Positions 7,588 to 44,979 are shown, counted from the first letter of the stretch. The stretch: 64,000 nucleotides of DNA from Escherichia coli (GCF_011045215.1 NZ_CP049201.1); one strand, 5' to 3'. Numbers and translations: made by a program. The notes: generated by a model from the sequence alone, not told the origin.

Positions 7588-7663
7588 GGCCCTTTAGCTC
7601 AGTGGTTAGAGCAGGCGACTCATAATCGCTTAGTCGCTGGTTCAAGTCCAGCAGGGGCCACCA
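7588..7663 (+). tRNA. ileY: tRNA-Ile (anticodon CAU, lysidine-type; ileY/ileX-like)
   Basis: 76-nt sequence GGCCCTTTAGCTCAGTGGTTAGAGCAGGCGACTCATAATCGC...GGGGCCACCA with CAU in the anticodon loop and encoded CCA end; recognised as the E. coli minor tRNA-Ile. Confidence 0.93.
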
Positions 7664-8414: not shown

Positions 8415-9764
8415 ATGTTAATTAATAAAAGCAACGGATTTAACGCTAGCGCAGTTTTGGGTAGTGGAAGTTATAATGAAAATAAATCTTCTAAACACAT
8501 GGAGCTACTAGCTCATAGTATTGTAAAATTAATTTGTAAGGAAGCTGCATCAGAGACGTATCGCGGTGCTCTTGAAACTTTACAAAAAATGATGTCTGAA
8601 TGTAAATATAAAGAAGGCAACGCCTTTGTCATTATGGGAGCTGGAGGACAATTAAAACGTATTAAATATGATGTTGATGAAAATAAATTAAAAATATTCA
8701 ACATATACTTTGATAATAATTACGAGGTAGTTACTGATGGTGAGCCTGACGTAGTATTTTTAAGCAAGCAGGAGTGGGAAAATCTTCTCATTAAATTAAA
8801 ACCGGAGATTAAAGAAAATGTGTTTTCTGAAAATAACAAATTATCGAGAGAAAATAATTTTGATCAGTATGTTCAATCCGCTAAAAGAAATGAACAGACC
8901 CTTTTCGATAATATAAGAAAAAGTGATTTTCATGTTGGTTCACTTAAGCCAGGTAGTATGAATAATGTTATTTTAGAAATGCCACCAAATGTCTGTATGG
9001 AATCACGTAATTCATATGAAAACCAAATAGATGAGATTTCATCTTTGTCAGAGTCAAAGGAACACCCCATAGATATTCAAGAAAAAACAGATGCGTTTGT
9101 GAATGAGTTCAGGGGGATATTATTTGATCAAAATGGAAGGTCTTCAGAGTTTCTACTTAATTTTTATGAATGTTGCTATGTGTTTTTACCAAGAGCGCAG
9201 CCTCAGGATAAAATCGAAAGCTATAATTCAGCACTGCAAGCTTTTTCCATCTTTTGTTCATCTACGTTGACACATAATAATATAGGCTTTGATTTCAAAT
9301 TATTTCCAGAAGTCAAGCTGTCTGGAGAACATCTTGAAACGGTATTCAAATACAAAAATGGCGATGATGTCCGGGAGATAGCCAAAATTAACATTACTCT
9401 CCAAAAAGAAGAGGGTGGCTTATATAATCTACGTGGATTGGATTTTAAGGGATGCTTCTTTTCTGGACAGAACTTCAGTAACTATGATATTCAATATGTG
9501 AACTGGGGAACGTCATTGTTTGATGTTGATACTCCGTGTATTTTTAATACGCCTGCTAACCATGAGAGTTATGAAAAATCATTAAAACCTGTAAGCGAAA
9601 ACGGTTTAAATGGAGTCTTATCTGATCGTAATAAAAAAATAAAAATGATCACGGGTGTGGCGCCATTCGATGATATTTTATTTATGGATGATGACTTTGA
9701 TGATAACTCCCCTGAGGATGCTCCCATTGAGAATAGTCCTGTTGTGAATAGTCCCCTTGTATGA
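8415..9764 (+). CDS. Pentapeptide-repeat-containing protein (ypjB/ypjC-region gene; EspX-like effector family possible)
   Basis: 449-aa AT-rich ORF; C-terminal stretch LRGLDFKGCFFSGQNFSNYDIQYVNWGTSLFDVD fits a pentapeptide-repeat pattern; acidic C-terminal tail. Confidence 0.55.
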   Translation: MLINKSNGFNASAVLGSGSYNENKSSKHMELLAHSIVKLICKEAASETYRGALETLQKMMSECKYKEGNAFVIMGAGGQLKRIKYDVDENKLKIFNIYFDNNYEVVTDGEPDVVFLSKQEWENLLIKLKPEIKENVFSENNKLSRENNFDQYVQSAKRNEQTLFDNIRKSDFHVGSLKPGSMNNVILEMPPNVCMESRNSYENQIDEISSLSESKEHPIDIQEKTDAFVNEFRGILFDQNGRSSEFLLNFYECCYVFLPRAQPQDKIESYNSALQAFSIFCSSTLTHNNIGFDFKLFPEVKLSGEHLETVFKYKNGDDVREIAKINITLQKEEGGLYNLRGLDFKGCFFSGQNFSNYDIQYVNWGTSLFDVDTPCIFNTPANHESYEKSLKPVSENGLNGVLSDRNKKIKMITGVAPFDDILFMDDDFDDNSPEDAPIENSPVVNSPLV

Positions 9765-10059
9765 AGTTCTAAAAGTAGTTTTCAATGATAAATAAATGGC
9801 TATTTTTACGAAGAGATAATAACGTAGATTGAAACAATATGTATTATTGATTGAGTAAATGGGATTATTCTTCACACTACATCCATTTTAGTGTCACTAC
9901 CAAAGAAAAAGGGGCTACGTTTTCATGTAACCCCTTGATTTATTTGGTGGGCTAGCAGTGACTGAATTGGTGCTGTAATTGGTTGAAATATTTCATCTAA
10001 TGTCTGGTTCAACTTTCCTTAGCTGCCTGAAAGTTTTTTGATCTTACCCAGCAATAACA

Positions 10060-10390
10060 GCGTTACGGTGCACCACGCCTGACTGAAGAACTGCGTGCTC
10101 AGGGTTACCACTTCAACGTAAAACCGTGGCAGGAGGTCCGGACTGAAAAAACTGCTCAGGACATCATCGGCAGGGAACGCACTGCTAGTCTGTAAACTGA
10201 ACCGACTGGGGCGCAGTATGTGGCATCTTGTCGTGCTGTTGGAGGAGCTGTGCGAACGTGGTATTAACTTTCGTGCTCTGGCCCAATCTATATTTGCCCA
10301 ACAATGGGGGGGCGAATGCTGTAAAAGTAAAACAATCTGCGATCTCAAAGTTATTGTGTGATTTTTATGTGAGCAGAAGATATTCATCAG
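10060..10390 (+). pseudogene. Degenerate serine DNA-invertase fragment (pinH-like) fused to a short unidentified upstream piece
   Basis: Frameshifted translation gives ...[52 protein letters not shown]..., matching the central region of Gin/Pin invertases ([30 protein letters not shown]); lacks the catalytic N-terminus and C-terminal HTH. Confidence 0.45.
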
Positions 10391-10699
10391 AAACGATTAT
10401 GTAAATCATTTTATTTTGCCAACGGCCTCATTGTCGAAAGAAAAGAATACGCCCGTGTTTCCTGAATAGATTGACTTTTTTATCCAACCACACTTCAGCG
10501 CACTGCGTTTAAAAAATGCCTCATTCTTATGCGGAATATCATCATTTCATCATGATGTCTTTGATGAGCGGTGAACACAATACACTTGCGCTGTCTCTTC
10601 AGGATGAATCCCCTGGTCTGGTGCCTGTGGGCTGATGTTGCAGCAAAGCTAAGGTCGCTTAAACGCTACTCAGTATTCACTTTTCAGAGGATGAAATTT

Positions 10700-13600
10700 A
10701 TGAACAGGACCAGTCCCTATTATTTTCGCCGCTCAGTACTTTCCTTATTGATATCTGCCTTAATATATGCCCAGCCTGGAGAGGCTGCTTTCACATCAAT
10801 CGTTACTGGTATCGTAAATGGTGAAACTGTTGATGGTGATCAAATAGTAGATGAACGTGGTACAACTAATGATATTCATATCATTAATCACGGCCGCCAG
10901 ACTGTAATTGGTGGGATGTCTAATGGAAGTATTATTGAAGTTGGTGGACAACAAGATGTAGCAAGCCATAATGATTATCAGGGGCAAGCTAATAATACAA
11001 TCCTTCATGGGGGTGCACAGGTAATTTATAATGGCGGGAATTCTACCGGTACGATAATCGAGAGTGGTCATCAGCAAGTTTATAACGGTGGTACCAGCAA
11101 TGGCACGATAATCGAGAGTGGCAATCAGTACGTTTATAAAGATGGTACCAGCAATGGCACGATAATTAAGAATGGTAATTCAGTCGTCGAAGGAGGGAGG
11201 GCGAACGGGACTGTCATCGATGGTGGTAAACAAACAGTAACAACTCAGGGATATGTTGACGGTACGACGATAAATAAGTCCGGTTATCAGGACATCATGC
11301 AAGGAAGTCAGGCAAAGAATACGACAATAGATGGGGGGCGGCAGTATGTGGACTCGAGTTTTGTAGAAACCACCATCATCAAAAATGGGGGCGATCAAAG
11401 AGCATATAAGAGCCATGCGCTGAACACTACGATAGATGGAGGTCGACAGTATATTGATTCAAGTACTGCACAAATAACCACCATTAAAAATGGAGGAACG
11501 CAACAATTAATTGCCAGCCAGGCTATGATCACCTCGATTGAAGGGGGAATGCAGACGCTGGAAAGTTCGTCAATGGCGTACAATACCACGATCTATTCTG
11601 GCGGGAAGCAAATTGTTGATAACACCAGCACCTCGGATGTTATTGAAGTTTATTCCGGTGGCGTGCTTGATGTTAGTGGTGGTACGGCAACAAATGTTAC
11701 CCAGCACGATGGTGCAATTTTAAAAACAAACACTAACGGTACGACGGTGAGCGGTACGAATAGTGAAGGTGCATTCTCCATCCACAATCACGTGGCAGAC
11801 AATGTGTTGCTGGAAAACGGTGGTCATTTAGACATAAACGCATATGGTTCGGCAAACAAGACGATTATTAAAGATAAAGGAACAATGTCAGTTTTAACCA
11901 ATGCTAAAGCTGATGCGACCCGAATAGATAATGGCGGGGTTATGGATGTTGCCGGAAACGCGACCAATACCATAATTAATGGTGGTACACAGAATATTAA
12001 TAATCATGGTATTGCCACGGGCACTAATATCAACAGTGGAACGCAAAATATCAAGAGCGGCGGGAAAGCTGACACGACAAATATATCCTCCGGGAGCCGG
12101 CAGATTGTTGAGAAAGATGGTACGGCAACTGGCAGCAATATTAGCGCTGGAGGCTCGCTGATTGTCTATACCGGCGGTATTGCACATGGGGTTAACCAGG
12201 AGACGGGCAGTGCTTTAGTTGCCAACACGGGTGCAGGGACTGATATCGAAGGATACAACAAGCTCTCTCACTTCACTATTACCGGAGGGGAGGCTAATTA
12301 TGTTGTGCTGGAAAATACCGGCGAACTGACGGTAGTGGCTAAAACCTCGGCGAAAAATACTACCATTGATGCTGGCGGTAAGCTGATTGTCCAGAAGGAG
12401 GCTAAAACAGATAGCACCAGACTTAATAATGGCGGCGTTCTGGAGGTTCAGGACGGTGGTGAGGCTAAGCATGTTGAGCAACAATCCGGCGGCGCATTAA
12501 TTGCTTCCACGACCTCCGGAACACTTATCGAAGGAACCAACAGTTATGGTGATGCTTTCTACATCAGGAATTCAGAAGCTAAAAATGTAGTGCTGGAAAA
12601 CGCTGGCTCATTAACCGTCGTCACTGGTTCCCGGGCAGTTGACACGATTATTAATGCCAACGGCAAAATGGATGTTTATGGAAAAGATGTTGGCACTGTA
12701 CTCAATAGTGCTGGCACCCAAACAATATATGCCAGTGCCACTTCTGATAAAGCAAATATCAAAGGTGGCAAGCAAACGGTATATGGTTTAGCCACTGAAG
12801 CAAATATCGAAAGTGGTGAACAAATTGTTGATGGTGGGTCAACAGAGAAAACACACATCAATGGTGGCACGCAAACCGTTCAGAATTATGGTAAGGCAAT
12901 CAATACCGATATCGTCTCTGGCCTACAACAAATTATGGCAAACGGGACAGCGGAAGGTTCCATTATTAATGGGGGTTCACAGGTAGTTAATGAGGGCGGT
13001 CTGGCTGAAAACTCGGTGCTTAATGACGGCGGCACACTCGATGTGCGGGAGAAAGGCAGCGCAACGGGGATACAGCAGAGTAGCCAGGGCGCTTTGGTTG
13101 CAACCACCAGGGCGACGCGGGTCACAGGAACACGCGCGGATGGCGTCGCGTTCAGCATCGAGCAGGGTGCGGCGAACAATATCCTGCTGGCAAATGGCTG
13201 CGTGTTAACCGTGGAGTCAGACACCACTTCCGCCAAAACACAGGTCAATACGGGCGGGCAGGAGATCGTCAAAACAAAAGCCACTGCGACAGGCACGACG
13301 CTCACCGGCGGCGAACAAATCGTCGAGGGTGTGGCGAATGAGACAACGATTAACGACGGTGGAATACAAACAGTTTCGGCTAACGGAGAGGCAATAAAAA
13401 CAACGATCAATGAAGGCGGTACGCTGACAGTTAACGATAATGGCAAAGCAACAGATATCGTCCAGAACAGCGGTGCCGCTCTCCAGACGAGCACGGCTAA
13501 CGGTATTGAAATCAGCGGTACTCACCAGTACGGCACTTTTTCCATTTCCGGCAATTTAGCGACCAATGCGTTGCTGGAAAATGGCGGTAATTTATTGGTA

Positions 13601-15433
13601 TTAGCAGGCACCGAAGCTCGCGACTCCACGGTTGGCAAGGGTGGTGCAATGCAAAACCTGGGTCAGGACTCCGCCACAAAGGTTAACTCTGGCGGGCAAT
13701 ATACCCTTGGGCGGTCAAAAGATGAGTTTCAGCCTCTGGCCCGGGCAGAAGATCTCCAGGTCGCTGGCGGGACGGCAATCGTCTACGCAGGTACGCTGGC
13801 GGATGCATCGGTCAGTGGCGCGACAGGAAGCCTGTCGTTAATGACGCCACGGGATAATGTTACGCCAGTTAAACTCGAAGGGGCGGTCCGGATTACCGAT
13901 AGCGCGACATTAACTCTGGGAAATGGCGTCGATACAACGCTTGCCGACCTGACGGCTGCCAGCCGGGGCAGTGTCTGGCTTAACAGCAATAATTCCTGTG
14001 CAGGTACCAGCAACTGCGAATATAGAGTAAACAGTTTGCTACTCAACGACGGTGATGTTTATTTATCAGCACAAACAGCAGCGCCTGCCACAACTAACGG
14101 TATCTACAATACGCTGACAACCAATGAACTTTCCGGTAGCGGTAATTTCTACCTGCATACCAACGTTGCAGGCTCCCGGGGCGATCAACTGGTCGTCAAC
14201 AACAACGCCACTGGTAATTTTAAAATCTTTGTTCAGGATACCGGCGTCAGCCCACAGTCTGACGATGCGATGACGCTGGTGAAAACAGGGGGAGGGGATG
14301 CTTCGTTTACGCTGGGCAATACCGGCGGTTTCGTTGATCTTGGGACCTATGAGTATGTCCTGAAAAGTGACGGCAACAGCAACTGGAACCTGACCAATGA
14401 TGTCAAACCCAACCCGGATCCCAACCCAAATCCGAAGCCAGATCCAAAACCAGACCCAAAACCGGATCCGAAACCAGACCCGACTCCCGATCCAACGCCG
14501 ACACCCGTTCCGGAGAAACGCATCACGCCTTCTACGGCAGCCGTACTCAATATGGCTGCAACATTACCGTTGGTATTTGATGCTGAGCTAAACAGTATTC
14601 GCGAGCGGTTGAACATAATGAAAGCGAGTCCACACAACAATAATGTCTGGGGGGCGACGTATAACACCCGTAATAATGTCACCACCGATGCGGGTGCCGG
14701 GTTTGAGCAGACGCTGACCGGAATGACAGTGGGGATCGACAGCCGTAATGATATTCCTGAAGGAATTGCCACGCTGGGCGCTTTTATGGGTTATTCCCAT
14801 TCACATATCGGTTTTGATCGCGGAGGACATGGCAGTGTGGGCAGTTATTCTCTGGGCGGCTATGCCAGTTGGGAACATGAAAGTGGTTTCTATCTGGACG
14901 GTGTCGTGAAGCTGAACCGTTTTGAAAGTAACGTAGCCGGTAAAATGAGCAGCGGTGGAGCCGCCAATGGCAGTTACCACAGCAACGGGCTGGGCGGTCA
15001 CATTGAAACCGGGATGCGATTTACCGATGGTAACTGGAACCTGACGCCGTATGCATCGTTAACGGGGTTCACCGCTGATAACCCCGAATATCATTTATCC
15101 AATGGCATGAAATCGAAATCAGTCGATACCCGCAGTATATATCGTGAACTGGGGGCAACGCTGAGTTACAACATGCGTCTGGGGAACGGTATGGAAGTTG
15201 AGCCGTGGCTGAAGGCGGCTGTGCGCAAAGAATTTGTCGATGATAACCGGGTGAAGGTGAATAATGACGGTAATTTCGTCAATGATTTGTCGGGCAGACG
15301 TGGAATATACCAGGCAGGTATTAAAGCCTCATTCAGCAGTACGTTAAGCGGGCATCTCGGGGTGGGGTATAGCAACGGTGCCGGTGTGGAATCCCCGTGG
15401 AACGCGGTGGCTGGTGTGAACTGGTCGTTCTGA
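10700..15433 (+). CDS. ypjA: AIDA-I-type adhesin-like autotransporter (ypjA-like)
   Basis: ORF 10571-15433; probable start ATG 10700 (MNRTSPYYFRRSVLSLLISALIYAQPGEA signal peptide); passenger built of ~19-aa imperfect repeats (NGTIIESG.QQVYNGG...), PNPDPNPNPKPDPKPDP linker, C-terminal beta-barrel ending ...AGVNWSF. Confidence 0.85.
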   Translation: MNRTSPYYFRRSVLSLLISALIYAQPGEAAFTSIVTGIVNGETVDGDQIVDERGTTNDIHIINHGRQTVIGGMSNGSIIEVGGQQDVASHNDYQGQANNTILHGGAQVIYNGGNSTGTIIESGHQQVYNGGTSNGTIIESGNQYVYKDGTSNGTIIKNGNSVVEGGRANGTVIDGGKQTVTTQGYVDGTTINKSGYQDIMQGSQAKNTTIDGGRQYVDSSFVETTIIKNGGDQRAYKSHALNTTIDGGRQYIDSSTAQITTIKNGGTQQLIASQAMITSIEGGMQTLESSSMAYNTTIYSGGKQIVDNTSTSDVIEVYSGGVLDVSGGTATNVTQHDGAILKTNTNGTTVSGTNSEGAFSIHNHVADNVLLENGGHLDINAYGSANKTIIKDKGTMSVLTNAKADATRIDNGGVMDVAGNATNTIINGGTQNINNHGIATGTNINSGTQNIKSGGKADTTNISSGSRQIVEKDGTATGSNISAGGSLIVYTGGIAHGVNQETGSALVANTGAGTDIEGYNKLSHFTITGGEANYVVLENTGELTVVAKTSAKNTTIDAGGKLIVQKEAKTDSTRLNNGGVLEVQDGGEAKHVEQQSGGALIASTTSGTLIEGTNSYGDAFYIRNSEAKNVVLENAGSLTVVTGSRAVDTIINANGKMDVYGKDVGTVLNSAGTQTIYASATSDKANIKGGKQTVYGLATEANIESGEQIVDGGSTEKTHINGGTQTVQNYGKAINTDIVSGLQQIMANGTAEGSIINGGSQVVNEGGLAENSVLNDGGTLDVREKGSATGIQQSSQGALVATTRATRVTGTRADGVAFSIEQGAANNILLANGCVLTVESDTTSAKTQVNTGGQEIVKTKATATGTTLTGGEQIVEGVANETTINDGGIQTVSANGEAIKTTINEGGTLTVNDNGKATDIVQNSGAALQTSTANGIEISGTHQYGTFSISGNLATNALLENGGNLLVLAGTEARDSTVGKGGAMQNLGQDSATKVNSGGQYTLGRSKDEFQPLARAEDLQVAGGTAIVYAGTLADASVSGATGSLSLMTPRDNVTPVKLEGAVRITDSATLTLGNGVDTTLADLTAASRGSVWLNSNNSCAGTSNCEYRVNSLLLNDGDVYLSAQTAAPATTNGIYNTLTTNELSGSGNFYLHTNVAGSRGDQLVVNNNATGNFKIFVQDTGVSPQSDDAMTLVKTGGGDASFTLGNTGGFVDLGTYEYVLKSDGNSNWNLTNDVKPNPDPNPNPKPDPKPDPKPDPKPDPTPDPTPTPVPEKRITPSTAAVLNMAATLPLVFDAELNSIRERLNIMKASPHNNNVWGATYNTRNNVTTDAGAGFEQTLTGMTVGIDSRNDIPEGIATLGAFMGYSHSHIGFDRGGHGSVGSYSLGGYASWEHESGFYLDGVVKLNRFESNVAGKMSSGGAANGSYHSNGLGGHIETGMRFTDGNWNLTPYASLTGFTADNPEYHLSNGMKSKSVDTRSIYRELGATLSYNMRLGNGMEVEPWLKAAVRKEFVDDNRVKVNNDGNFVNDLSGRRGIYQAGIKASFSSTLSGHLGVGYSNGAGVESPWNAVAGVNWSF

Positions 15434-15443
15434 CCATCAACGA

Positions 15444-15466
15444 AAAAGCCCACATCTGTGGGCTTT
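15444..15466 (+). terminator. Hairpin after ypjA (AAAAAGCCCACATCTGTGGGCTTT)
   Basis: Perfect stem GCCCACA/TGTGGGC immediately 3' of the ypjA stop codon; weak U-tract. Confidence 0.5.
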
Positions 15467-16111
15467 CATGTTACCAGGAGCCGCGGCTCCTTTGCGTATC
15501 CTTTTATGTCTCCTCACCGTCTGGTCGGTGTCCTGCTGAGACTTCTAACTTCCTGTTTTTGTTGGTGTTGTTTTTACACCTTCCAATCATGATTGGTGCT
15601 GGCGTCCCTGTGCTTTTAATTATAGTGTATTGATATTTAATATTTTTGTTTAAATTAATTTCGTTATGGGTTCCAAAAAGGAACCATAAAGTAGAACCAC
15701 AGAACCTCGCATGGTTCCAACATGCCTAGCGACTTCAAAATAACACGCTCTATGGCAAACTAAATGTAAGTGTGGCTGGATATTTAGCGTCTGATTACTG
15801 AGAGGGTCAATAAAAACTGCTCTATCTCAAATACTGTAGTGGCCCATAAACTTGTCCGCTTGAGTCGATGGTGTACCTCGTCCGTTCAGGCCCGGAGTGG
15901 CTAATTAGCAGAGTATTCATGTCTGCTATGAGCGAGGATCGGACGTAAAACAACTGTAAAAAACTATTTAACTCAGGCAGAAATGTCAAGATTCAGTGAA
16001 AATGTCTAATCACTGGTTCGTTAGAAATGCCCATATGTTGAAAAGGCTGCTGCAAAAAAGTCTCTCGCAGCGGCCTCTTTAATATAACGTCATTGTGTGC
16101 ATCATCTTTAA

Positions 16112-17464
16112 TTATGGGTTTAACTCAAACTGTTCCCCGTTTATTAATTTTCGCAATAAGTCAAGTGCCTCAGATGAGTATTTTCCGACACCACTTTTCC
16201 CAGATTTAATGAAAACATGATAATTGTTGTCTGATGCTTTAATGTTGAAGTCGGTTAGTTTTCTTAATTTTTCGAATTCTTGATTAACATAGTGCCACGA
16301 TCCCATGTCGAGAATCCTTGCCAGATCAGACATTGTATATGGGAAACTAGCATTTAGTGCCTGCCCATTATTGAGTTCAGCGATACCATACATTTTTGCT
16401 AATGCATCATCATGCTCTGCAATATTGCGGAACATCTCAAAATCGTATGGAAGTTCTTGTTTAACAAGGGATTCTGATGCGAATGTGTACGTTCTGGCTA
16501 GAAATGCACGCACAAGTTTTGGATTAACGCTAATTTCCGGTGTATTAGATGATAACGCATCAAAAATCCAACCAAAATTATTTGCGTATATCACCTTGAT
16601 TCGAACGCTTTTATTCTCACCAACACCGATTAGCAATTCCTTTTGATGAGAACCAGTGGCCTCGCAGTCCTTACTGAAGGAGACAAGATAAATATTTGGA
16701 ATCAATGCATTATTGGGAGCGATGATTTCATCTATATCAGAGAGAATTGCCTTTATGTTTTCATCATTGATACTGTACCCAAAGAAAAACAAGGGGTGTT
16801 CAGCAAAATATGTTAGCAACTTAGCACTGATATATTTCTTACGTTTATAGAAATCAACATAATCTTCATTTGTAATAACAATACTTTCAACTTCATGACT
16901 GCTACCATGAATTTTCATGATTTCGCCATAAGATGAATAATTCACTTTAACAACGTTATGACCAACTATTGCCTGATAATTGTCAAATATTTTTTCTAAT
17001 GTGTCGTCATAATTTGTTGTGATTATTGCATGAGGTTTTACTTTCCTTAATTTCTGAACTTCCTCTGTATATTCCATGTTCGAGAAATCAACGGAGTTTG
17101 ATAATTCATTCAGAATGGATGCAATTTCATGCTTAATATAAATATCTTTTGGAGTCGTTCCTTCAAAGTATGTCTCTGGATAGCGATCCTTGCCATCATC
17201 CCAAGCCCATTCAGCATAGAAGTCACAAAAATCGCTAGCAATCAAAGGTTTGTTATCACCCTTTGTTTGGCTGTAGTAACCATAAGGGCGTTTGATCAAG
17301 GGGCATATTTCCGCTAGTTGCTTTAATAGACCTTCCCAGTCAGGCGCTTTTATATATCGTTGTGAAATACCTGCACCCATGAATAAAATGGGTTGGACTT
17401 GTAAGTTTTCAAGGCAAGATTTAACATCTTCGATTATTTCTTCTTGATATTCCGTAAAGTCCAT
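16112..17464 (-). CDS. Stand-alone SIR2-family (ThsA-type SIR2_2-like) protein with unknown C-terminal domain; candidate NAD+-depleting anti-phage effector
   Basis: 450-aa AT-rich ORF; sirtuin-like motifs ILFMGAGIS (GAGxS), ITTNYD, KIHGSSHE (HG) and FFFGYSINDENI line up with ThsA SIR2-domain motifs as I recall them; no partner gene within ~0.7-0.9 kb. Confidence 0.7.
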   Translation of the reverse strand: MDFTEYQEEIIEDVKSCLENLQVQPILFMGAGISQRYIKAPDWEGLLKQLAEICPLIKRPYGYYSQTKGDNKPLIASDFCDFYAEWAWDDGKDRYPETYFEGTTPKDIYIKHEIASILNELSNSVDFSNMEYTEEVQKLRKVKPHAIITTNYDDTLEKIFDNYQAIVGHNVVKVNYSSYGEIMKIHGSSHEVESIVITNEDYVDFYKRKKYISAKLLTYFAEHPLFFFGYSINDENIKAILSDIDEIIAPNNALIPNIYLVSFSKDCEATGSHQKELLIGVGENKSVRIKVIYANNFGWIFDALSSNTPEISVNPKLVRAFLARTYTFASESLVKQELPYDFEMFRNIAEHDDALAKMYGIAELNNGQALNASFPYTMSDLARILDMGSWHYVNQEFEKLRKLTDFNIKASDNNYHVFIKSGKSGVGKYSSEALDLLRKLINGEQFELNP

Positions 17465-24923: not shown

Positions 24924-26489
24924 TCAGTGGTAGTAGCCAGGACCACGCAGGTTTTCATGCTCTGAAGCATATGCCGGATGTTGTTCGCCCTGGCGGGATA
25001 ACGGAAGCTCAACGTTATCCCGATGATGACGCAGCAGATTGTCGATAAAGCGTCTGTCCGGGGCGTTATAGTGCAGGGCAACGTAACAGGCCTTTTCCAG
25101 CCGTTCCGGGCCGTATTTTTTCTGAAGTGCCAGCAGACCCAGGACTGCACGGTAAGCCAGCTCCGGATGGGGTTTGGCTTTCAGCATGGATTCAACCACC
25201 CGGCCTGTGGACGGACCTGTACGGTTTCCCTGCTCGATAAGGCGTTCCGGTGTCCATGTCCCATGCCGCCGGTGGCGTTCTGGCATGTGAAGCGGATTGG
25301 TTGTGTGTTTATATTCATGTGTGCTGCGCGGATGTTGCGCCACACACTGCCCCTTGTGCCAGAGCTGTACCACCGACTGCCCCACCTTCAGTGACAGACG
25401 CTGACCGACCAGTTCGTGTGGAACGGAGTACCAGTGACGGGCATATTCAACGTGGTAGTCAGGGCCAACCTTCACGGCTTTGTATTCCGTGTATTCATAA
25501 GGCTCCAGAGGCAGCGGAGAGAGTGCTGGTGCATCCAGCATGCGGAAGCGTTCTGCGCGGGTTTGATTACCGTATCCCTTCATTGGTCGGTTATTCATGT
25601 CCGTCAGCAACTCCCGAAGGCGTGCATTCAGCGCCCTGAGCGTGTGGAAGGTTTCATTACGGATGCGGGCAAGAAGCCATCGCTCGACGATGAGGACGCC
25701 GTTTTCTGCTTTTGGTTTATCTTTAGGTTTGCGCGGGCGGGCCGGGATAATAACCGTGCCATAGTGCTCAGCCAGCGCCTGATAACTGTCGTTGATGACA
25801 GGCTCATAGCGATCGGCTTTTTTCACTGCGCTTCTGAGGTTATCGGGGATGAGCAGCTTCGGTACGCCGCCCAGGAAGGTCAGGCAACGGCTGTGGGCAT
25901 TTAACCATGACATCATGTCCTGACCTTCGCACGCTTCAACATAGGTATAGTTGGACGCCCCCATTACAGCCACGAAGATTGCCACGCGGCGTATCTCTCC
26001 GGTGTCCGGATTAATAACAGGGACCGTAGGACCACAGAAGTCGATAAAGAGCTTTTCGCCAGCACGATGCTCCTGTCGCATGGAGAGGCGTCGCGTTTTT
26101 TTCCACTTCCGGTAGCAACGGCAGAAGTGTGAGTATCCCATCGCTTTGTCACCCGCCTGTGCCTTGTATTCCATCCACAACAGTTGGCGCGTCACGCCAG
26201 GTTTTCTCATTTCCGTATCGAAGTACAGCATGTCAGGCATAACAAGCTCTGACGCAGAGGTGTCTTTGGGCGGGAAAATGAGTTTCTCCAGCGTGTCATG
26301 GGATATATCAGCAGGTAATGGCCATGACAGAGAAGAGGCTTTGAAGCGGGCAAGAACCTCAAAAACGGTTGAGGCGCTGATGTGTAACGTCAGTCCGATA
26401 CAACGGTTAGTCAGCTTCTTATCGAACTTGAGCTGAAGGATCTTAAAACAAGTTTCCATAGTGCTCCTGGATTTTCTCTTTTTGGACAT
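24924..26489 (-). CDS. istA: IS21-family transposase IstA
   Basis: ORF 24924-26591; likely start MSKKRKS (26489); N-terminal HTH followed by integrase-like catalytic core; paired with istB. Confidence 0.8.
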   Translation of the reverse strand: MSKKRKSRSTMETCFKILQLKFDKKLTNRCIGLTLHISASTVFEVLARFKASSLSWPLPADISHDTLEKLIFPPKDTSASELVMPDMLYFDTEMRKPGVTRQLLWMEYKAQAGDKAMGYSHFCRCYRKWKKTRRLSMRQEHRAGEKLFIDFCGPTVPVINPDTGEIRRVAIFVAVMGASNYTYVEACEGQDMMSWLNAHSRCLTFLGGVPKLLIPDNLRSAVKKADRYEPVINDSYQALAEHYGTVIIPARPRKPKDKPKAENGVLIVERWLLARIRNETFHTLRALNARLRELLTDMNNRPMKGYGNQTRAERFRMLDAPALSPLPLEPYEYTEYKAVKVGPDYHVEYARHWYSVPHELVGQRLSLKVGQSVVQLWHKGQCVAQHPRSTHEYKHTTNPLHMPERHRRHGTWTPERLIEQGNRTGPSTGRVVESMLKAKPHPELAYRAVLGLLALQKKYGPERLEKACYVALHYNAPDRRFIDNLLRHHRDNVELPLSRQGEQHPAYASEHENLRGPGYYH

Positions 26490-26625
26490 TGACGTCTCCA
26501 CTGGTTTAAACACGGCAATGGAGACTGTGGTGAAAAGAGTTAATTCCCGGAGTGACTGGCGAATTCCAATCAATGATCGGAAGTATGCCAAATCGTGATC
26601 GATTGTGATGCCAACATATCCTTAC

Positions 26626-28100
26626 CCATAAATCCGAGTGATGTTATTCTGTTGATAAATTAACCATAATTTAGAGGAACTATGGAAAACTGGGTTATTA
26701 AGGAGCTGGAATCTCTGAATGTTGGTGATATCAGGCTCGAAAAGCGAATAAAGCACGTTCTCAGTGTGCTTAGCCGTTCACCAAAGGAAAGTATTCCCGT
26801 ATCCTGCCGTACCTGGAGTGAGACAAAAGCTGCTTATCGTTGCTTTTCCAGTGATAAAATTTCAGCCGATAAAATCATGGCTCCCCATAAGAAAAATATC
26901 ATCGAAAGGACTAAACAGTTTAAACGGGCTCTGGTTTTACAGGATACGACTGAACTAAATTATTCTGGTCAAAAAAAGAAACAGGGCGTCGGTCCCAGAC
27001 GACATGAAAATGAGCGAGATTTGTTTATTCACCCTCAATTGGTTATAAGTGATTCAGGTATTTGCTTAGGGGTTTATGATGATTATCAATGGTTCAGAAA
27101 AGAACTCAAAACTCAGAAACAAAGTCGTAAAGAAATAACTAATGATTCACTTCACAGGAAACATATCAGTGAGAAAGAAACAGGACGGTGGATAGAAGGA
27201 TATAAAAAAGCAACAGAACTGGCTAGGTCCTGTCCTGATACCCAGATAATTTCTGTTTCAGACCGTGAAGGTGATATTTACGACCTCTTTGAGAGTGCAG
27301 AAAATGAAAGTGGGATAAAGGCTGACTGGCTCGTAAGAATGAAGAGCATTAACCGGGCTATACTGAATTCATCAGGAAAAAGAGACTCATTACTCCTGAA
27401 TGAAAAAATGATGCAGATTTTGCCACAGCAGATAATTGAGTTTACCCTTCCGGAAGGACGAGGACAACCTTCCCGCAAAGTCCAGCAGGAGCTACGCTTA
27501 GCAAGGTTGACGCTACATCCACCCACCGGTCGAAGAGGAAAGTTACGTTGTTCTCCGGTAACGGTAACTGTATTACTTGCAAAGGAAATAAATGCTCCAG
27601 AAAGTGTCCAGCCATTAGTATGGTGGCTAATGAGTAGTGTACCTCCAGAAAAGCTGACGGAACCCGCACAGCTTATTCAATGGTATTTATTACGCTGGCA
27701 GATTGAAGTTTTCTTTAAGGTATTAAAAAGCGGATGTCAGGTTGAGAAATTACAACTTGAGACATTTGAACGCACAAGGAACTGTCTGGCCTTATACCTT
27801 ATAATCTCATGGAGAATACTTTATCTTAGCTCATTGTATAAAATGGTTCCGGAGGAACCCTGTGATTTAATTTTCGAAAAGAAAGAATATGAGTATCTCT
27901 GGATATTGGTAGAGAATACGCCTCCACCTGAAAACATACCGAATATAAGAACGGCGGTTTTAATGCTTGCAAGATTAGGAGGATATCTGGCAAGAAAAAA
28001 TGATTCGCCTCCAGGCCCTAAGACTATATGGTCAGGATTAACACAATTAATGCTGTCAATTAATGCCATAGAAATAGCCCAGAAAACTTGTGGGTAAGGG
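26626..28100 (+). mobile_element. IS4-family insertion sequence nested in the IS21-family left end
   Basis: Single transposase ORF flanked by imperfect terminal inverted repeats (CCTTACCCATAA... / ...TTGTGGGTAAGG); both flanks carry IS21-type repeat motifs; boundaries approximate. Confidence 0.6.
26682..28097 (+). CDS. IS4-family DDE transposase
   Basis: 471-aa ORF containing the IS4 Y-x2-R-x3-E-x6-K signature (YLLRWQIEVFFKVLK). Confidence 0.85.
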   Translation: MENWVIKELESLNVGDIRLEKRIKHVLSVLSRSPKESIPVSCRTWSETKAAYRCFSSDKISADKIMAPHKKNIIERTKQFKRALVLQDTTELNYSGQKKKQGVGPRRHENERDLFIHPQLVISDSGICLGVYDDYQWFRKELKTQKQSRKEITNDSLHRKHISEKETGRWIEGYKKATELARSCPDTQIISVSDREGDIYDLFESAENESGIKADWLVRMKSINRAILNSSGKRDSLLLNEKMMQILPQQIIEFTLPEGRGQPSRKVQQELRLARLTLHPPTGRRGKLRCSPVTVTVLLAKEINAPESVQPLVWWLMSSVPPEKLTEPAQLIQWYLLRWQIEVFFKVLKSGCQVEKLQLETFERTRNCLALYLIISWRILYLSSLYKMVPEEPCDLIFEKKEYEYLWILVENTPPPENIPNIRTAVLMLARLGGYLARKNDSPPGPKTIWSGLTQLMLSINAIEIAQKTCG

Positions 28101-29820: not shown

Positions 29821-31050
29821 TTATGGTGCAGGATAGGGGTTATTTTTAACTAATTGTTCTTTAATGGGATTTGTTGTCATGGAATGACAGGGTGTCAGAA
29901 GATGCAGGTGCAGGATTTGGTGGAAAGGATGTGCAGTGGCATGTAACAGAGACATGCCCCTGCGCCTGAGAAGTGCCACAATATGGCCGAGCAATACAAA
30001 CCACGAATGCAGACGACGCTGGCGGGGTATCTGACGAGCTGTATTGTGCAGTTTGCTCCTGAGTTGAATGACACCCACTGTTTCCTGTTGTCTTTCCAGA
30101 CGAATTTTTTCTTCAAGCTGAAGGATTTTCTCCAGAATCGTTTCCCGGTTTGCAGCCTGTTCTTCAGGCTCGCATGATGGCACTGGCACTGGCACTGGCA
30201 CTGGCACTGGCACTGGCACTGGCACTGGCACAGTCTGCTGTTGCTCTTTTTTCAGTAAAGCCAGGTGCTCTGGTGTAAAATCAATCTGTGTTTGCAGAGA
30301 AGACCAGCCATACTTTTTTCCAAGCTGAGACGCTTTAAAGGCAATGCCCTGGTACTGAAATGAAAAGCCGTTCATTTTTCCCGTTGAGGCGATATTAGGT
30401 TTACAGTTCACGCCTTCCTTTTCCAGCATAGTGATAAAAGTCAGCAAATCAGGGCGGCCGGTTAACGCATTATCAATCAGGCTCTGCAGAGTGGACCTGG
30501 GGCAGGGAGTTGTCGTTCTTTCAGCCATCATCAGCTCGTTGCGGGAAGGCTTTCTTTTCTCCTGACTATGACTACTGATTGCAGATGTGGTTTGAGTGAG
30601 TTTGTGGACTTTCTCCAGCTCGCTGATAATCCGGGTACTGATAAGATTTTCATTTTTCCCAAGGTACAGCTTCCCACCGACCATGTTAATTCTGTTAGCT
30701 ATTATATGGATATGCTGCCCGTCCGAATCATCGTGCATGATATAGCAGCGAAGATGGGTTTCAGTGAATCCCATCCGGGTCATATAATCGTCAGCGAATG
30801 CCGCCCATTGTCTGACTGACAGTGTTTCTCCCTTTGGCAGGCGAAGCGAATTATGCCAGACAGGTTTGGCGACACCGGGGCGCAGTAGTCTTGTGCCTTC
30901 AAATTCACTGATAAGTTCAGCAGCAGTGCTTCCCGTCATGTTGCCACCGATAATATAAGGCGTGATTTTGTGGTGAGATCCTGACTTAAGGCTATAGAGA
31001 ACAACACCTGCGAACTGTTTACCCCGCTTTATTTTCTGCATACCTTTCAT
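29821..31050 (-). CDS. Mobilization relaxase (MobA/MobL-like) with internal (VP)n linker; C-terminal tail of doubtful authenticity
   Basis: Three-histidine relaxase-type motif HDDSDGQHIHIIANR; start overlaps the mobC-like stop (ATGA at 31047-31050); low-complexity tail after the VP repeat. Confidence 0.65.
   Translation of the reverse strand: MKGMQKIKRGKQFAGVVLYSLKSGSHHKITPYIIGGNMTGSTAAELISEFEGTRLLRPGVAKPVWHNSLRLPKGETLSVRQWAAFADDYMTRMGFTETHLRCYIMHDDSDGQHIHIIANRINMVGGKLYLGKNENLISTRIISELEKVHKLTQTTSAISSHSQEKRKPSRNELMMAERTTTPCPRSTLQSLIDNALTGRPDLLTFITMLEKEGVNCKPNIASTGKMNGFSFQYQGIAFKASQLGKKYGWSSLQTQIDFTPEHLALLKKEQQQTVPVPVPVPVPVPVPVPVPSCEPEEQAANRETILEKILQLEEKIRLERQQETVGVIQLRSKLHNTARQIPRQRRLHSWFVLLGHIVALLRRRGMSLLHATAHPFHQILHLHLLTPCHSMTTNPIKEQLVKNNPYPAP
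30178..30231. repeat. Perfect hexanucleotide tandem repeat (TGGCAC)x9 inside the relaxase gene
   Basis: Read directly; encodes a run of 8-9 Val-Pro dipeptides on the minus strand. Confidence 0.95.
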
Positions 31051-35600: not shown

Positions 35601-38600
35601 TCATTTTCCTAATTCTCCAGCTAAAAGTTCAGCCTGCTTCAAAACAGTCTCTGTGGCGAGCAATGACATATCAGGCGGATAACCATATTTTTTGAGCAGA
35701 CGTTTTACCACCACGCGAATTTTTGCTCTTGCTGCTTCTTTCACTGTCCAGTCAAGACTGACATTGTTGCGGATAGCCTCCGTAAGTACGACTGCCAGTT
35801 CTCGTAGTTTTTCCTTTTCCATTAACTCGCGAGCACTGTCGTTATCTGCAACAGCAGAATAGAAGGCATATTCATAAGCGCTGAGGTTTAACTGGCTGGC
35901 AAGGCTGTCAGATTCCTGGATAGTCTTGGCAAGCTTGATTAGCTCATCAATTACCTCCGCTGCTGTCAGTACCTTGTTCTGGTAGCCATTGATTGCAGAG
36001 GTCAGCATATCAATCAGTTTTTTGCCTTGGGTGATACTTTGATTCGAGCGAACTTTAATCTCGTCAGAAAGCAGTTTTTTAAGCGTTTCCAAAGCAATAT
36101 TTCTGTGTTGGTAATCCTTCATTTCCTGAAGGAATTCTTCAGAAAGAACGGAAATATCTGGCTTTTGTATCCCAGCAGCGTCAAAAATATCAACAACTTT
36201 ATCGGTAACCAGAGCCTGATCGATAGTCTGTTTTACCCGAACTTCCAGACTGTCATTGTGTTCTTCTTCTGATCCGTCTGAGTTTTCAGTAAATTTATTC
36301 AGTCTGGCTTTTACTGCCTGGAAGAATGCTACTTCGGGTGCCGCTTCCATTGCTTTATCGTGCGGTGTCGCCAATGCAAATGCCTGCGACAAGGCTGCAA
36401 CCGCAGCCAGGAAACGCATTTTACCTTTACCGTTATCCAGCCCTAAAATATGGTTTTCTGATTCAAGAATAATTGTCAGGCGTTGTGAAGTAGTTGCGGC
36501 AAAGTAAGCTTTGTAATCGTAGCCATGCATCATGCCTTCCAGGATTTCCAGCTTTTCCTGCATGAGCGTTACAGCTTCTTCCTGAACCTCAGCAGGATCT
36601 CCACGTCCACCTGCATCAGAGTAAAAGGAGAGGGCTTCTTTTAAATCAGAGGCAATGCCCAGATAGTCAACAACCAGACCGCCTATCTTATCTTTATACA
36701 CACGGTTCACACGGGCAATTGCCTGCATGAGGTTGTGGCCTTTCATTGGTTTGTCGATATACAGCGTATGCATGCTGGGAGCGTCGAAGCCGGTTAACCA
36801 CATATCACGCACTATCACCAGTTTCAGCTTGTCGTCGTCATCCTTCATACGATTAGCCAGAACCTGACGTTCTTTTTTTGTGGTGTGGTGTTTAGCGATT
36901 TCTGGTCCGTCAGCAGCAGAAGAGGTCATGACGACTTTAATCACGCCATCATTTAGATTATCGCTGTGCCATTCAGGTTTTAACTCTATGATTTCTTTAT
37001 AAAGTTCAGCAGCAATACGACGGGACATGGTGACAATCATGCCCTTGCCATGATCGGCATTAGATTTTAAGCGCTGTTCAAAGTGCTGAACCATATCCGC
37101 CGCAATAGCTTTAATACGTTTTGAACTGCCAATCAAACCTTCGATTCTGGCCCATTTAGACCGTTCTTTCTGGGTAAGCGTCAGCTCGTCTTCGTTAAAC
37201 TCATCGTCGAAGTCTTCAATTAGCTGGCGACCTTCGTCACTGATGGCAATTTTGGCAAGACGGCTTTCATAGAAGATACGCACGGTTGCACCGTCTTCTA
37301 CGGCCTGTGAGATATCGTAGATATCAACGTAGTTACCAAAAACAGCAGGTGTGTTTACGTCCGTTTTTTCTATGGGGGTTCCGGTAAAGCCAAGATAGGT
37401 AGCATTGGGCAAGGCATCACGCATATATTTGGCAAAGCCGTAAACGGTGCGTTTACCTGTTACGTTGCCTTCGCTGTCTTTCACGTCAACTTCTTTGGCG
37501 CTGAAACCGTATTGTGAACGGTGGGCTTCATCAGCGATAACGACAATATTGGTTCTGTCTGACAACAACTCATAGATATTGCTGCCATCATTAGGCTGGA
37601 ATTTTTGAATAGTGGTAAACACCACACCACCAGAGGCTACGCGCAAATATTCTTTGAGTTCTTCCCGGTTGTCGGCCTGTTTTGGTGTCTGACGAAGTAG
37701 CTAGGTCGCGGAAGAGAACGTACCGAATAGCTGATCATCCAAATCGTTACGGTCAGTAATCACAACAACTGTCGGATTATCCAGCGCCAGCACAATTTTC
37801 CCGGTATAAAACACCATCGAAAGCGATTTACCGGAACCCTGAGTATGCCAGACTACGCCCGCTTTGCGATCTCCGGTTTTTTGCGCATTAACAAGATCTT
37901 TACTGTTACGTCCCTGCTGGCGCAGTGCCACTTCGGCAGAGGGGGAGTCCGCATTCACCGCTGAGGCACGAATAGTGGAAAGAACTGCTGCATTGACCGC
38001 GTAGTACTGGTGATAAGCCGCCATTTTTTTAACAGTACGGATACTGATAATCCCTTTGCTGTCTTCATGTTTGCTGGCCTCAAACACGATAAAGTGGCGG
38101 ATCATATCCAGCAGCGTTACAGGATTAAGCAACCCCTGTAATAAAACTTCAAGCTGTGGTTGGGTACTGGTGGCTTGCGTTTTACCGTTAGCAGTTTTCC
38201 ACGTCATATAACGACTGAAATCGGCAGAAACCGTCCCCGCTTTGGCTTCCAGCCCGTCAGATATCACATTAAAAGCATTGTAGTTAAACAGACCGGGGAT
38301 TTGGTTCTGATAGGTTTTAATCTGATTATAGGCACCTGTTACCGTAGCATTTTCGTCAGCGGCATTTTTAAGTTCGATAACGACTAATGGCAGGCCGTTG
38401 ATGAATAAAATAAGATCAGGTCGGCGGGTATGATTGCCTTCTTTGATGGTGAGCTGATTAATGACCAGAAATTCATTATTAGTGGGATCGTTAAAGTCGA
38501 TCAGGCAGGCCAGCTCTCCTTGTGTATTACCATCCTTACTGACTTCGATATTGATCCCTTCGGTCAACAGGCGATGAAAGGCCAGATTGTTTGCCATTAG

Positions 38601-38840
38601 ATCAGGTGTGCTGATCTGCATCACCTGTTTCAGGGCTTCCTCACACTTCTGTTCACTAAGGTGCGGATTCAGGCGTTGTAGAGCAATACGCACCTTATCT
38701 TCAAGGATAACCTGCTGATAGCTACGTAACGGATTGATTCCACTGGGTTCAATGTCCGGGCCGTAAACATACTCATAGCCCAGCCCTTGCAGGTGCTCAA
38801 TTGCCATTACTTCAATATCGGATTCGGTCATCTTTGCCAT
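35601..38840 (-). pseudogene. hsdR: Type I restriction enzyme R subunit HsdR interrupted by an in-frame amber codon
   Basis: ORFs 37701-38840 (N-terminal, helicase motif I GSGKS) and 35601-37646 (C-terminal) are in the same frame, separated by a single TAG at 37701-37703 (...[33 protein letters not shown]...). Confidence 0.8.
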
Positions 38841-38898: not shown

Positions 38899-40050
38899 TT
38901 ATGCTACTGATGCGATTGCTTCTTCTGCATACTGAACCCGTACTTCACCGCTCATCAGTTTGGGAAGTAAGGTATCGCGGAGTTTTTCTAAGCTATCAAT
39001 TTGTTTTGAGTTGTTAATAAGTTTACTTTCAAATGAATCTAATAACTCATTAATTATACGTAGGGAAGCTTCTGTTGGCAGATTAACATTGAACTTCTTA
39101 AGATGATCCAAGTTAACTCGTTGTCTGCCACTTGAACCTTCCATACAGCTTTCTGCATATTCTTTGAAGTCCGGGTTTCGGCACATGATATATGAGATAA
39201 AAGGATGGATTTCTTTTTTAGGACGCATAACTATGAATTCGGTAGAACCCCATCCAGTTTCATTGTCGTCTAAAAAATCAATATAGGCCGCTTTCCCATT
39301 TTCTAAACATGGGGTAATTCTGGCTAGCAAGGTATCTCGTTTAGTAAATTTAGTTCCTGAAGAAAATGGACGTCTGTAATATCCATTTGCACGAAAATTA
39401 ACAGTGCTCAGTCCAGCCATGTCCAAATAAGTAGCGTCTTGGCTTTTAATTAAAGTTCGCTTTGGATTAAAGTCAATTATCTGATCTATACTAACTGATA
39501 CACCAGTGCTATCTAAAATAAACCACTGCCTAAACAGGGTTTCAGCCATAGATTCTAGTGTTTTATTCTGGCAATGAAGCAGGTCTATTTTGTCTTTAAG
39601 AGAGGACAAAATAGAGGCGATGGCTTTTTGTTCAGATTCATCAATTGGTAAGTAAAGAGGAATCAAATTTAGCGATGCTTTATTTAATTTTGGTTGAGCA
39701 GCACCTGTTAAATAAGGAGATAGATCAAGTTGTGAAAAATATTGGATTATCAATGCCGTTAAATGGGGCTTTTTAGCTTTAAGGACATGAGCGTGATTAT
39801 TAACCCAAAATTTTCCAGTAGCTTCAAATGCTATAGGTGTTTTTCTGGAATTTAAGTTTTCTCCATCTTCAGAAATAAGGATGTAGCTGCCATCAAAAAT
39901 ATAATTGTCGATATAATCGACAATTCCTGACGCTCCATAATATGGAAAATTTCCTTTCTTATGGGCTCGTTCCATAGCACTCAAAGGAATTCTTTGTGCG
40001 TTGCAAAAATCTGCTAATTCAGTTATACAAAAATTTCTCCACCTACTCAT
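38899..40050 (-). CDS. hsdS: Type I R-M specificity subunit HsdS
   Basis: 383-aa ORF between hsdR and hsdM, start overlapping the hsdM stop; two-TRD architecture with conserved central and C-terminal helical regions. Confidence 0.75.
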
Positions 40051-44086: not shown

Positions 44087-44979
44087 TTTAATACCTCTTT
44101 GTTTACTGGGGTTAATATCTGAGATGGTAGTTCTGAAAGATTCTCTTGTTCAAGTATATGTTGAAAGCTTTTATTCATCATTATGATGTTAAAAATCTCA
44201 TTTACTATTAGTAGGTTGGTTTTTATGAATTTTGAGTTGTTATAAACAGATTTATGTTCAGCGATACTATTTTCATAAAGCTCAATCAACTCCTCTGCAG
44301 TCATCCTTTTTGATGGTTTGTGATAATAAAATCCGGCTGCTTTTGCACCTTTATTCCCAACTGTTCTTTGATTTAGAATGTGTTTTATCTTTATAATGTC
44401 CCGACTTTTTATTAATTTTTTATCATATGCTTCGGTAAGAATATCTTGTGCTTCCTCAGTTTCACATCTTGCAAATTGCACTGCGAGATACAGAGGCAAA
44501 TTACCCCGTTCGACTGCTGAGAGAAGTTTATGCTCTCCCTTATCAAGTAGCATATTAATACTGCTCACCCAGTTCGATGAATATCCAGTAATCTCACTTA
44601 TTTCGGAGTCTGAAAGTCCTCTGATTTTCATGTCTTTAATCACCTGTAATAACTCATTAGAACGTGGTCTTCTCCTTGCAATGTTTTCAACTAAACTCAT
44701 AACGTAAGCATCTTCTTCTGATACATCTCTTATAATTGCTGGAATAATAGTTTCACCTAATGCAACGAGAGCCTCTATTCTCCCTTGACCACAAATTAAA
44801 GCATATTTGAAATCGCCTTCATCAATAGCTCTTACGCTTATAGGCTTGCTTAATCCTCTTTTTTTTATGCTTTCCTTTATTTCTTCATGCACTAACTTAT
44901 TTCTTGTTCGTGGGTTAAGAAATTTTATTTTTGCAATCTCAATTTGAATTATTGGGAATTCATTTTTTTCAGGCAGCAT
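44083..44979 (-). CDS. ParB-N-terminal-domain (ParB/Srx-fold) protein, paralog A
   Basis: 298-aa ORF; LICGQGRIEALVALG ParB-box-like motif; start overlaps the recombinase gene end. Confidence 0.65.
   Translation of the reverse strand: MLPEKNEFPIIQIEIAKIKFLNPRTRNKLVHEEIKESIKKRGLSKPISVRAIDEGDFKYALICGQGRIEALVALGETIIPAIIRDVSEEDAYVMSLVENIARRRPRSNELLQVIKDMKIRGLSDSEISEITGYSSNWVSSINMLLDKGEHKLLSAVERGNLPLYLAVQFARCETEEAQDILTEAYDKKLIKSRDIIKIKHILNQRTVGNKGAKAAGFYYHKPSKRMTAEELIELYENSIAEHKSVYNNSKFIKTNLLIVNEIFNIIMMNKSFQHILEQENLSELPSQILTPVNKEVLK

Follow-up and report, generated by a model that had tools for sequence, protein, structure and literature searches.

We report that the reading frame at positions 10700–15433 (+ strand) of a stretch of 64 000 nucleotides (nt) of Escherichia coli DNA (GCF_011045215.1, NZ_CP049201.1; this whole stretch is called the window below) is ypjA, and we consider it very probable that this chromosomal gene, ehaD in enterohaemorrhagic E. 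coli (EHEC), encodes a type Va autotransporter in which the repeats serve as rungs of a β-helix and length changes rarely, by whole rungs. The open reading frame (ORF) is single, running from an ATG at 10700 to a stop at 15431–15433; homologous RefSeq genes begin at the same start, and the ends coincide exactly with those of the initial annotation, which had described a 'ypjA-like adhesin' built from an array of imperfect repeats. In particular, megablast finds matches to the gene in 5326 of 5426 complete E. coli genomes, and full-length matches are always to the RefSeq gene 'ypjA: adhesin-like autotransporter YpjA/EhaD', a name used in thousands of genomes. The best match (99.0% nt identity) is ypjA of E. 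coli OkiPb01695, with K-12-type, O157-type and other alleles at 92–95% overall, and the gene order (ileY, ypjCB, a recombinase remnant, a 39-codon ORF, ypjA, and ssrA downstream) is the same in other strains. Considering that identity to annotated ypjA and a shared neighbourhood together mark an orthologue, the gene is ypjA itself rather than merely ypjA-like; the kind of autotransporter had been recognized correctly, and the name can now be given more precisely (92–99% nt, same locus).

YpjA clusters with self-associating autotransporters and has been linked to biofilm, by a mechanism stated as unknown (PMC9289746). The part of PMC3796261 that cites Roux 2005 connects YfaL, YpjA and YcgV with adhesion and biofilm, and ehaD has been linked to biofilm in Shiga toxin-producing E. 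coli (PMC4076661). By analogy, the allele in the window would be expected to be adhesive.

Repeats and the β-helix fold

The gene can be divided as follows (aa, amino acid residues; HMM, hidden Markov model; TRF, Tandem Repeats Finder; E, expect value).

10700–15433 (+): ypjA/ehaD coding sequence, 1577 aa plus stop, from the ORF, Pfam domains and nt identity to annotated ypjA
10700–10786 (+): probable Sec signal peptide MNRTSPYYFRRSVLSLLISALIYAQPGEA, read from the sequence
10787–11638 (+): variable N-terminal head, predicted to form ~15 uninterrupted β-helix rungs of 17–19 aa (14 with the core motif); HMM units at aa 61–313; period 18, z=10
11639–14026 (+): conserved stalk, five ~100-aa modules alternating with canonical 19-aa rung blocks; period 19
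14027–14395 (+): pertactin-like C-terminal passenger domain, the autochaperone region; PF03212 at aa 1110–1232, E=2.5e-45; matches pertactin 1DAB residues 414–534
14405–14515 (+): proline-rich linker, a P-X dipeptide array KPNPDPNPNPKPDPKPDPKPDPKPDPTPDPTPTPVPE, aa 1236–1272; 49% Pro; array in TRF
14645–15430 (+): outer-membrane β-barrel translocator, 12-strand; PF03797 at aa 1316–1555, E=4.3e-46; TIGR01414, E=6.6e-100

Autocorrelation (BLOSUM62) of passenger aa 30–1100 against 200 residue shuffles gives self-similarity peaks at offsets 18 (z=12.0) and 19 (z=7.6), with period 18 dominant in aa 30–330 (harmonics at 35/36/54/71) and period 19 dominant in aa 330–1100. Neither period occurs in the C-terminal 480 aa, and the C-terminal third shows just the 2-residue alternation of barrel strands. 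The array of ~19-aa imperfect repeats described initially is therefore real, with period 18 in the head, 19 in the stalk and z up to 12, and its 'dozens' of repeats is a fair description, since an iterated HMM recovers a 12-residue core, gTtIngGgQqv, in 30 places at intervals of 17–19 aa. The HMM seed of 18-aa units shrank to this core, which makes it fit for counting and not for placing exact rung boundaries.

In the DNA, autocorrelation against codon shuffles puts the periods at 54 nt, with 44% identity (z=8.9), and at 57 nt, with 34% (z=6.1); the background is 28%. TRF, applied to 10000–16000, reports the linker and a single array in the helix region (11051–11166, 54 nt × 2.1 copies, 90% matches); because it is too insensitive for units that are 35–45% identical, autocorrelation with shuffles was used. 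Repetition had been claimed for both DNA and protein: it is strong in the protein and weak in the DNA, where there is that one TRF array in the helix and a longest exact repeat of 24 nt. 'G-rich' is apt for the glycine content (15.5% of residues in the passenger) and for codon position 1 (G and A at 40% each); the DNA as a whole, with 27% G and 31% A, does not fit the description.

The array is hierarchical rather than a simple tandem run, because five related ~100-aa modules sit between blocks of canonical rungs. Fourteen consecutive core copies occupy aa 61–313, and the canonical 19-aa blocks of the stalk lie at aa 423–490, 665–770 and 865–912. The modules carry the anchor motif N.VLLENGG.L at aa 368, 533, 629, 826 and 956; four of the five, when aligned, are mutually 34–41% identical, and the fifth (aa 533) is placed via the anchor motif only.

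Several structural results bear on what a single repeat represents. An AlphaFold model of aa 29–1110 (65 aligned homologues) has a mean predicted local distance difference test (pLDDT) of 87.9, contains short β-strands only, and in the stalk has pLDDT mostly >85; a head-only model is all-β, with pLDDT 95.2 and a predicted template modelling score of 0.89. Autocorrelation of the DSSP string of the passenger model has its peaks at 18 for the head and 19 for the stalk, equal to the sequence periods. Foldseek against the PDB ranks Ag43 first (7KO9, 7KOH, 4KH3, 7KOB; E ~1e-21), followed by TibA (4Q1Q, E=3e-12), with generic β-helix enzymes and tailspikes far lower; by sequence, the closest solved structures are Ag43 variants, TibA, Vag8, BrkA and pertactin. 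Since the model periods equal those of the sequence and Foldseek places Ag43 and TibA at the top, each repeat is predicted to be one rung of a right-handed three-stranded β-helix. The repeat type is already catalogued (Pfam AIDA PF16168; TIGR04415) and the fold is established for this family of repeats; a review of 2022 gives a β-helix as predicted for YpjA, with a published structure lacking (PMC9289746).

At the N terminus, MNRTSPYYFRRSVLSLLISALIYAQPGEA has by eye the layout of a probable Sec signal peptide (basic n-region, hydrophobic core, and small residues ahead of a putative cleavage site before aa 30), and a Pfam scan of YpjA finds no extended signal peptide region (PF13018). The passenger matches AIDA PF16168 (E=2e-149, 486 bits, 12 stretches; Pfam) and the TIGR04415 strand-loop-strand repeat (218 bits, 11 stretches; NCBIfam), in multiple ~19-aa units, as is characteristic of an AIDA-type repeat passenger. 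An autochaperone domain is listed for EhaD (PMC5767081), and among solved structures the barrel matches BrkA (3QQ2, E=2e-23) and Vag8 (7AKV) by sequence. The protein thus has the C-terminal barrel of type Va and a β-helical passenger with an autochaperone domain (AlphaFold, Foldseek, PF03212). The proline-rich linker, which had been noted initially, is found at 14405–14515; it most likely acts as an extended spacer between rod and barrel.

In the mechanism that we propose, YpjA would be led into the periplasm by its Sec signal peptide, the 12-strand barrel at its C terminus would enter the outer membrane, and the passenger would be threaded outward, folding from the C-terminal autochaperone domain into one long right-handed β-helix. 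Each unit with the core nTtIngGgQxV, 18 aa long in the head or 19 aa in the stalk, would make one turn, so that selection would maintain the spacing of the units together with a handful of residues that face inward or sit in turns (T, I, G, G, Q, V), leaving the DNA to drift to ~35–45% identity between units.

Rung number and the origin of the head

An alignment of seven ypjA alleles and one paralogue locates two inserts, of 18 aa (aa 117–134) and 35 aa (aa 242–276 or 245–279, the alignment gap at aa 245–279 being equivalent to aa 242–276 within the repeat), that are present in the window, OkiPb01695 and PapM-32-1 and absent from K-12, O157, NR3736 and FDAARGOS_1285.

11048–11101 (+): extra 18-aa rung GTIIESGHQQVYNGGTSN, absent from common alleles; a 54-nt tandem duplication, 87% identical to its neighbour (90% matches in TRF)
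11423–11527 (+): two extra rungs, together 35 aa NTTIDGGRQYIDSSTAQITTIKNGGTQQLIASQAM, that common alleles lack; an older tandem duplication of 105 nt, with 67% identity to the 105 nt before it

The paralogue, which is at the ycgH locus, lacks 17 aa at a different position, and an Escherichia albertii homologue has additional 18- and 19-aa units at other sites. No indel in the helix region breaks the reading frame, and each one in the head amounts to a whole number of rungs; FDAARGOS_1285 is additionally short of 2 aa near aa 380. Heads are 842 nt long in ~2740 of the 2764 genomes with a near-complete head (and in 52 of 60 evenly spaced records of a systematic sample). A 950-nt head occurs in 19 genomes, always at another locus, and the 1001-nt head of the window in 2 of 5426. 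The window therefore carries a rare long-head allele, with three extra rungs relative to K-12 and O157 (proteins of 1577, 1526 and 1528 aa, respectively).

Compared with the window, the linker is longer by 2 aa in K-12 and by 4 aa in O157, OkiPb01695 and PapM-32-1. Gene lengths in the systematic genome sample are 4569, 4575, 4581 and 4587 nt, a spread that arises from changes of 2–4 aa in the P-X array, bar the 2-aa stalk deletion of FDAARGOS_1285. The linker is thus a commoner site of length polymorphism than the helix; gain or loss of whole rungs occurs, but rarely.

The head is also where the allele diverges in sequence. The 500 nt 5' of the ypjA start match K-12 and O157 at 98–100%; over roughly the first 900 nt of the gene, identity to other ypjA alleles falls to 72–85%, and it then returns to 94–100%. 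This mosaic boundary is sharp at the start codon, and at the 3' side depends on the allele group, with K-12 and O157 recovering by nt 901 and NR3736 and FDAARGOS_1285 by nt 1051. The synonymous divergence (dS) is 0.56–0.63 in the head, 0.055–0.09 in the stalk and 0.07–0.11 in the C-terminal part, and the ratio of non-synonymous to synonymous divergence (dN/dS) of the head is ~0.3. We argue against positive selection as the main cause of the divergence, given that dS itself is ten-fold higher and dN/dS only ~0.3; the pattern points to an old or imported segment. Since the divergent ~900-nt block lies between K-12-like flanks, it would have arrived by homologous recombination, the direction and source of which we infer.

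The nearest relative of the head belongs to a ypjA-like gene of 1558 aa that 19 complete genomes carry at the ycgH locus, flanked by ymgG/ymgD and minE (e.g. NZ_AP027764; in E. coli 2017-02-2CC it lies at L010 5671–10347). Relative to the window its head is 86% identical over 1001 nt, rising to 96% over the first 150 nt, its stalk and barrel are 93–98% identical, and the ~200 nt upstream are 95% identical; it differs in its chromosomal locus, in having one rung fewer (−17 aa) and in a head dS of 0.20. Exchange between ypjA and ycgH is plausible on these sequence comparisons. It is possible, if on balance improbable, that the tip (signal peptide plus ~300-aa head) is an exchangeable cassette between the paralogous ypjA and ycgH loci, with the window allele as one product; gene conversion across the shared ~200 nt upstream and the 3.8-kb stalk and barrel (93–98%) would then move heads between loci and strains.

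Shorter members of the family were spotted by a word-indexed homologue search, which returned mostly fragments, did not list the full-length 1526-aa YpjA clusters, and was used for alignments and for finding such paralogues. The shorter proteins P0005, P0007, P0008 and P0011 were mapped onto YpjA; P0011 corresponds to a shorter ycgH-locus paralogue (1012 aa; L011 4001–7039). P0007 (1036 aa; E. coli O28/42:H37, 17 contigs) matches aa 1–856 and aa 1314–1577 of the window protein, so that the final module of the stalk is missing, as are the autochaperone domain and the proline-rich linker.

Alternative readings and related adhesins

Length variation by recombination had been proposed initially, with the repeats as its substrate and a comparison of copy number among strains as the check. 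That comparison upholds the existence of variation, in that strains differ by whole rungs (17, 18 and 35 aa) and by 2–4 aa in the linker; copy number is nevertheless almost fixed, at three discrete head lengths of which 842 nt is dominant. A stronger form of the proposal is a contingency locus, in which near-identical DNA repeats slip or recombine often and switch adhesin length or antigenicity within lineages. Differences of whole units between alleles would suit such a locus, as would the one adjacent 54-nt pair (87–90% identical, sharing a 24-nt exact run), the variation of 6–12 nt in the P-X linker among strains and the existence of shorter family members of 883–1036 aa; however, that 24-nt run (at 11089 and 11143, in the 54-nt duplication) is the longest exact direct repeat of the gene, the second is 17 nt, no further one reaches the 14-nt search word, and unit pairs other than the 54-nt pair are 60–76% identical with exact repeats of at most 17 nt. 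Copy number does not range widely either, with the 842-nt head in ~2740 genomes and the long form in 2 of 5426, and the dS of ~0.6 between long and short heads indicates that the indels are ancient and not the product of recent slippage. Considering that the exact repeats are so short and that length change rides with the block of dS 0.56–0.63, the helix repeats are a poor present-day substrate for recombination. As a whole we regard the contingency reading as very improbable: for the helix repeats it is largely refuted, and for the linker, at a low rate, it is plausible.

Two further alternatives concern what the repeats, or the DNA that encodes them, might otherwise do. The repeats could be chiefly acceptor sites for a heptosyltransferase of the Aah/TibC type (BAHT), making YpjA a glycoprotein adhesin like AIDA-I and TibA, and both the TIGR04415 match (a profile labelled 'O_hepto_targRPT') and the similarity in fold to glycosylated TibA are in line with this; yet no glycosyltransferase gene is adjacent, the 935-nt gap between ypjCB and ypjA holds no ORF of adequate size, and a Pfam scan of 13 window ORFs (most window ORFs lie outside it) turns up no heptosyltransferase or glycosyltransferase. 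Ag43, which has the same repeats, is functional without glycosylation. With no heptosyltransferase gene beside the adhesin at this locus, as there is in aah-aidA and tibC-tibA, we give this explanation very little credence. It is less probable still, to the point of being hardly credible, that any antisense ORF within ypjA is a genuine overlapping gene. Stop-free antisense runs do reach 165–211 codons, but codon shuffles of the gene give similar maximum lengths and equal counts of runs of at least 60 codons in the three frames (10 in the gene versus 8.4 in shuffles, 6 versus 6.5, and 2 versus 2.0); antisense stop density (26–59 per 1000 codons) is within the range of other long window ORFs, and family matches are confined to low-complexity artefacts. 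A promoter consensus scan of 10200–15800 finds 10 sites against 8.2 ± 3.3 in shuffles, hence no enrichment, and terminator matches there fall within coding sequence. Since the shuffles destroy the repeats and keep the codon composition (position 1 is 74–80% purine) and the 4.7-kb length, composition and gene length suffice to explain the runs; the initial annotation was right that these ORFs are present and spurious, and mistaken in attributing them to the repetitive DNA.

12886–13494 (−): spurious antisense ORF, 202 aa; no Pfam family
13217–13525 (−): spurious antisense ORF, 102 aa; no Pfam family
14347–14772 (−): spurious antisense ORF, 141 aa; a Gly/Ser-rich stretch mirrors the Pro-rich linker, and Pfam gives low-complexity keratin-type matches, of which only KRTAP passes its cut-off, narrowly (23.5 versus 21.1 bits)

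Some observations weigh against the reading that we prefer, of repeats as regular rungs in an adhesin whose head was acquired by recombination. The passenger model is of low confidence at aa 118–134 and aa 742–756, the latter of which matches no indel. DSSP gives unusually long paired strands at model residues 397–423 and 653–692 (aa 425–451 and 681–720), in canonical-repeat regions, and these may be β-hairpin excursions like those that bend Ag43, not plain rungs. Further, the roles in adhesion and biofilm rest on over-expressed K-12 and O157 alleles, the heads of which are ~25% different (nt), and the head at the ycgH locus is only 86% identical overall, at a dS of 0.20, so that it would be a relative of the donor and not the donor. 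We also considered whether aa 118–134, the extra 18-aa unit, is a disordered loop, and rejected this: its pLDDT of <50 in the full-passenger model is an alignment artefact, and in the head-only model, for which the alignment included unit-bearing sequences, the unit is a regular rung with pLDDT ~98.

K-12 YpjA (b2647) and O157:H7 EhaD share the locus and domain order of the window gene, and their stalk, autochaperone region, linker and barrel are 94–100% identical in nt; relative to these the first ~900 nt are 72–85% identical, and the window protein has 18 aa and 35 aa more in the head and 2–4 aa fewer in the linker. Ag43 (Flu) has the same three-stranded β-helix of AIDA-type 19-aa rungs and is the best solved match to YpjA, at 22–24% identity and with a passenger about half as long; in phylogeny, too, the two fall together among biofilm-forming autotransporters (PMC9289746). 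The likeness to Ag43 is one of sequence, fold and phylogeny. The NCBIfam equivalog profiles score well under their shared cut-off of 1200 bits (NF033177 for Ag43, 351 bits; NF033176 for AIDA-I, 280 bits), which by sequence makes YpjA a relative of Ag43 and AIDA-I and not either protein. AIDA-I and TibA resemble YpjA in their PF16168/TIGR04415 repeats, pertactin-type autochaperone domain and barrel, and differ in having a dedicated aah/tibC-type heptosyltransferase gene, none being adjacent to ypjA. Bordetella pertactin shares the β-helix passenger and the homologous C-terminal domain (PF03212; 1DAB). The length of its proline-rich repeats varies among strains; in YpjA, unlike pertactin, the proline-rich array follows the autochaperone domain and adjoins the barrel.

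Surroundings of the gene and implications

Upstream, ypjCB (8415–9764, +) is intact in the window, encoding 449 aa that match NCBIfam YpjCB (926 bits) and carry DUF5507 and DUF5508; annotations of some other strains (ZH177, AH21) list it as a pseudogene interrupted by a stop. The 935 nt between its end at 9764 and ypjA contain the recombinase remnant and the 39-codon ORF (10516–10635, +), which lies 65–184 nt 5' of ypjA, corresponds to the RefSeq hypothetical protein WP_001120794.1 in other strains, and is identical across all strain records examined; it could represent a leader peptide, a remnant or an artefact of annotation. A tRNA at 7588–7663 (+) is called 'Met' by ARAGORN (anticodon CAT), the homologous RefSeq gene being a tRNA-Ile, and this is consistent with ileY, the CAT anticodon of which carries a lysidine modification.

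Downstream, homology to other strains stops ~150–200 nt past the ypjA stop. An integrative island of ~32 kb (window 15600–48566) lies between that stop and the transfer-messenger RNA gene ssrA (48204–48566, −); at the same site other strains have different islands (CP4-57-like elements or prophage-like genes). Its features include the following.

46808–48118: tyrosine integrase
44969–46525: serine recombinase
29821–31050: relaxase
26682–28097: Tn5-like transposase
24924–26591: Mu/rve-type transposase
16112–17464 (−): SIR2_2-domain protein, 450 aa, directly downstream of ypjA; PADLOC candidate defence family PDC-S25 (E=4e-77), and weaker SIR2 matches to ThsA, LmuA and Dsr1
35601–38840 (−): split hsdR of a type I restriction-modification system, in which hsdM (40047–41594) and hsdS (38899–40050) are intact

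From its profile matches, the SIR2_2 gene, which sits at the edge of the island, probably has an anti-phage role. The two hsdR ORFs, 37701–38840 and 35601–37646, match positions 3–286 and 365–1024 of the PADLOC REase_I profile, which probably reflects a frameshift or an internal deletion, and the restriction arm may be inactive.

Finally, what is mildly unusual here is confined to the rarity and mosaic origin of the head allele, the gene, repeat family and fold class being already known. The clarifying outcome is that the repeats of ypjA are best read as structural rungs and not as a hypermutable tract. The long-head allele and the ycgH paralogue can confound presence/absence calls and short-read assemblies, and both should be recognized in ypjA typing and adhesiome surveys. 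Moreover, two near-identical 4.6-kb genes ~1.5 Mb apart would be a substrate for gene conversion or inversion. If the tip is indeed exchanged as a cassette between the two loci, this would amount to a slow diversification of adhesin tips in E. coli, with heads varying in rung number and surface.

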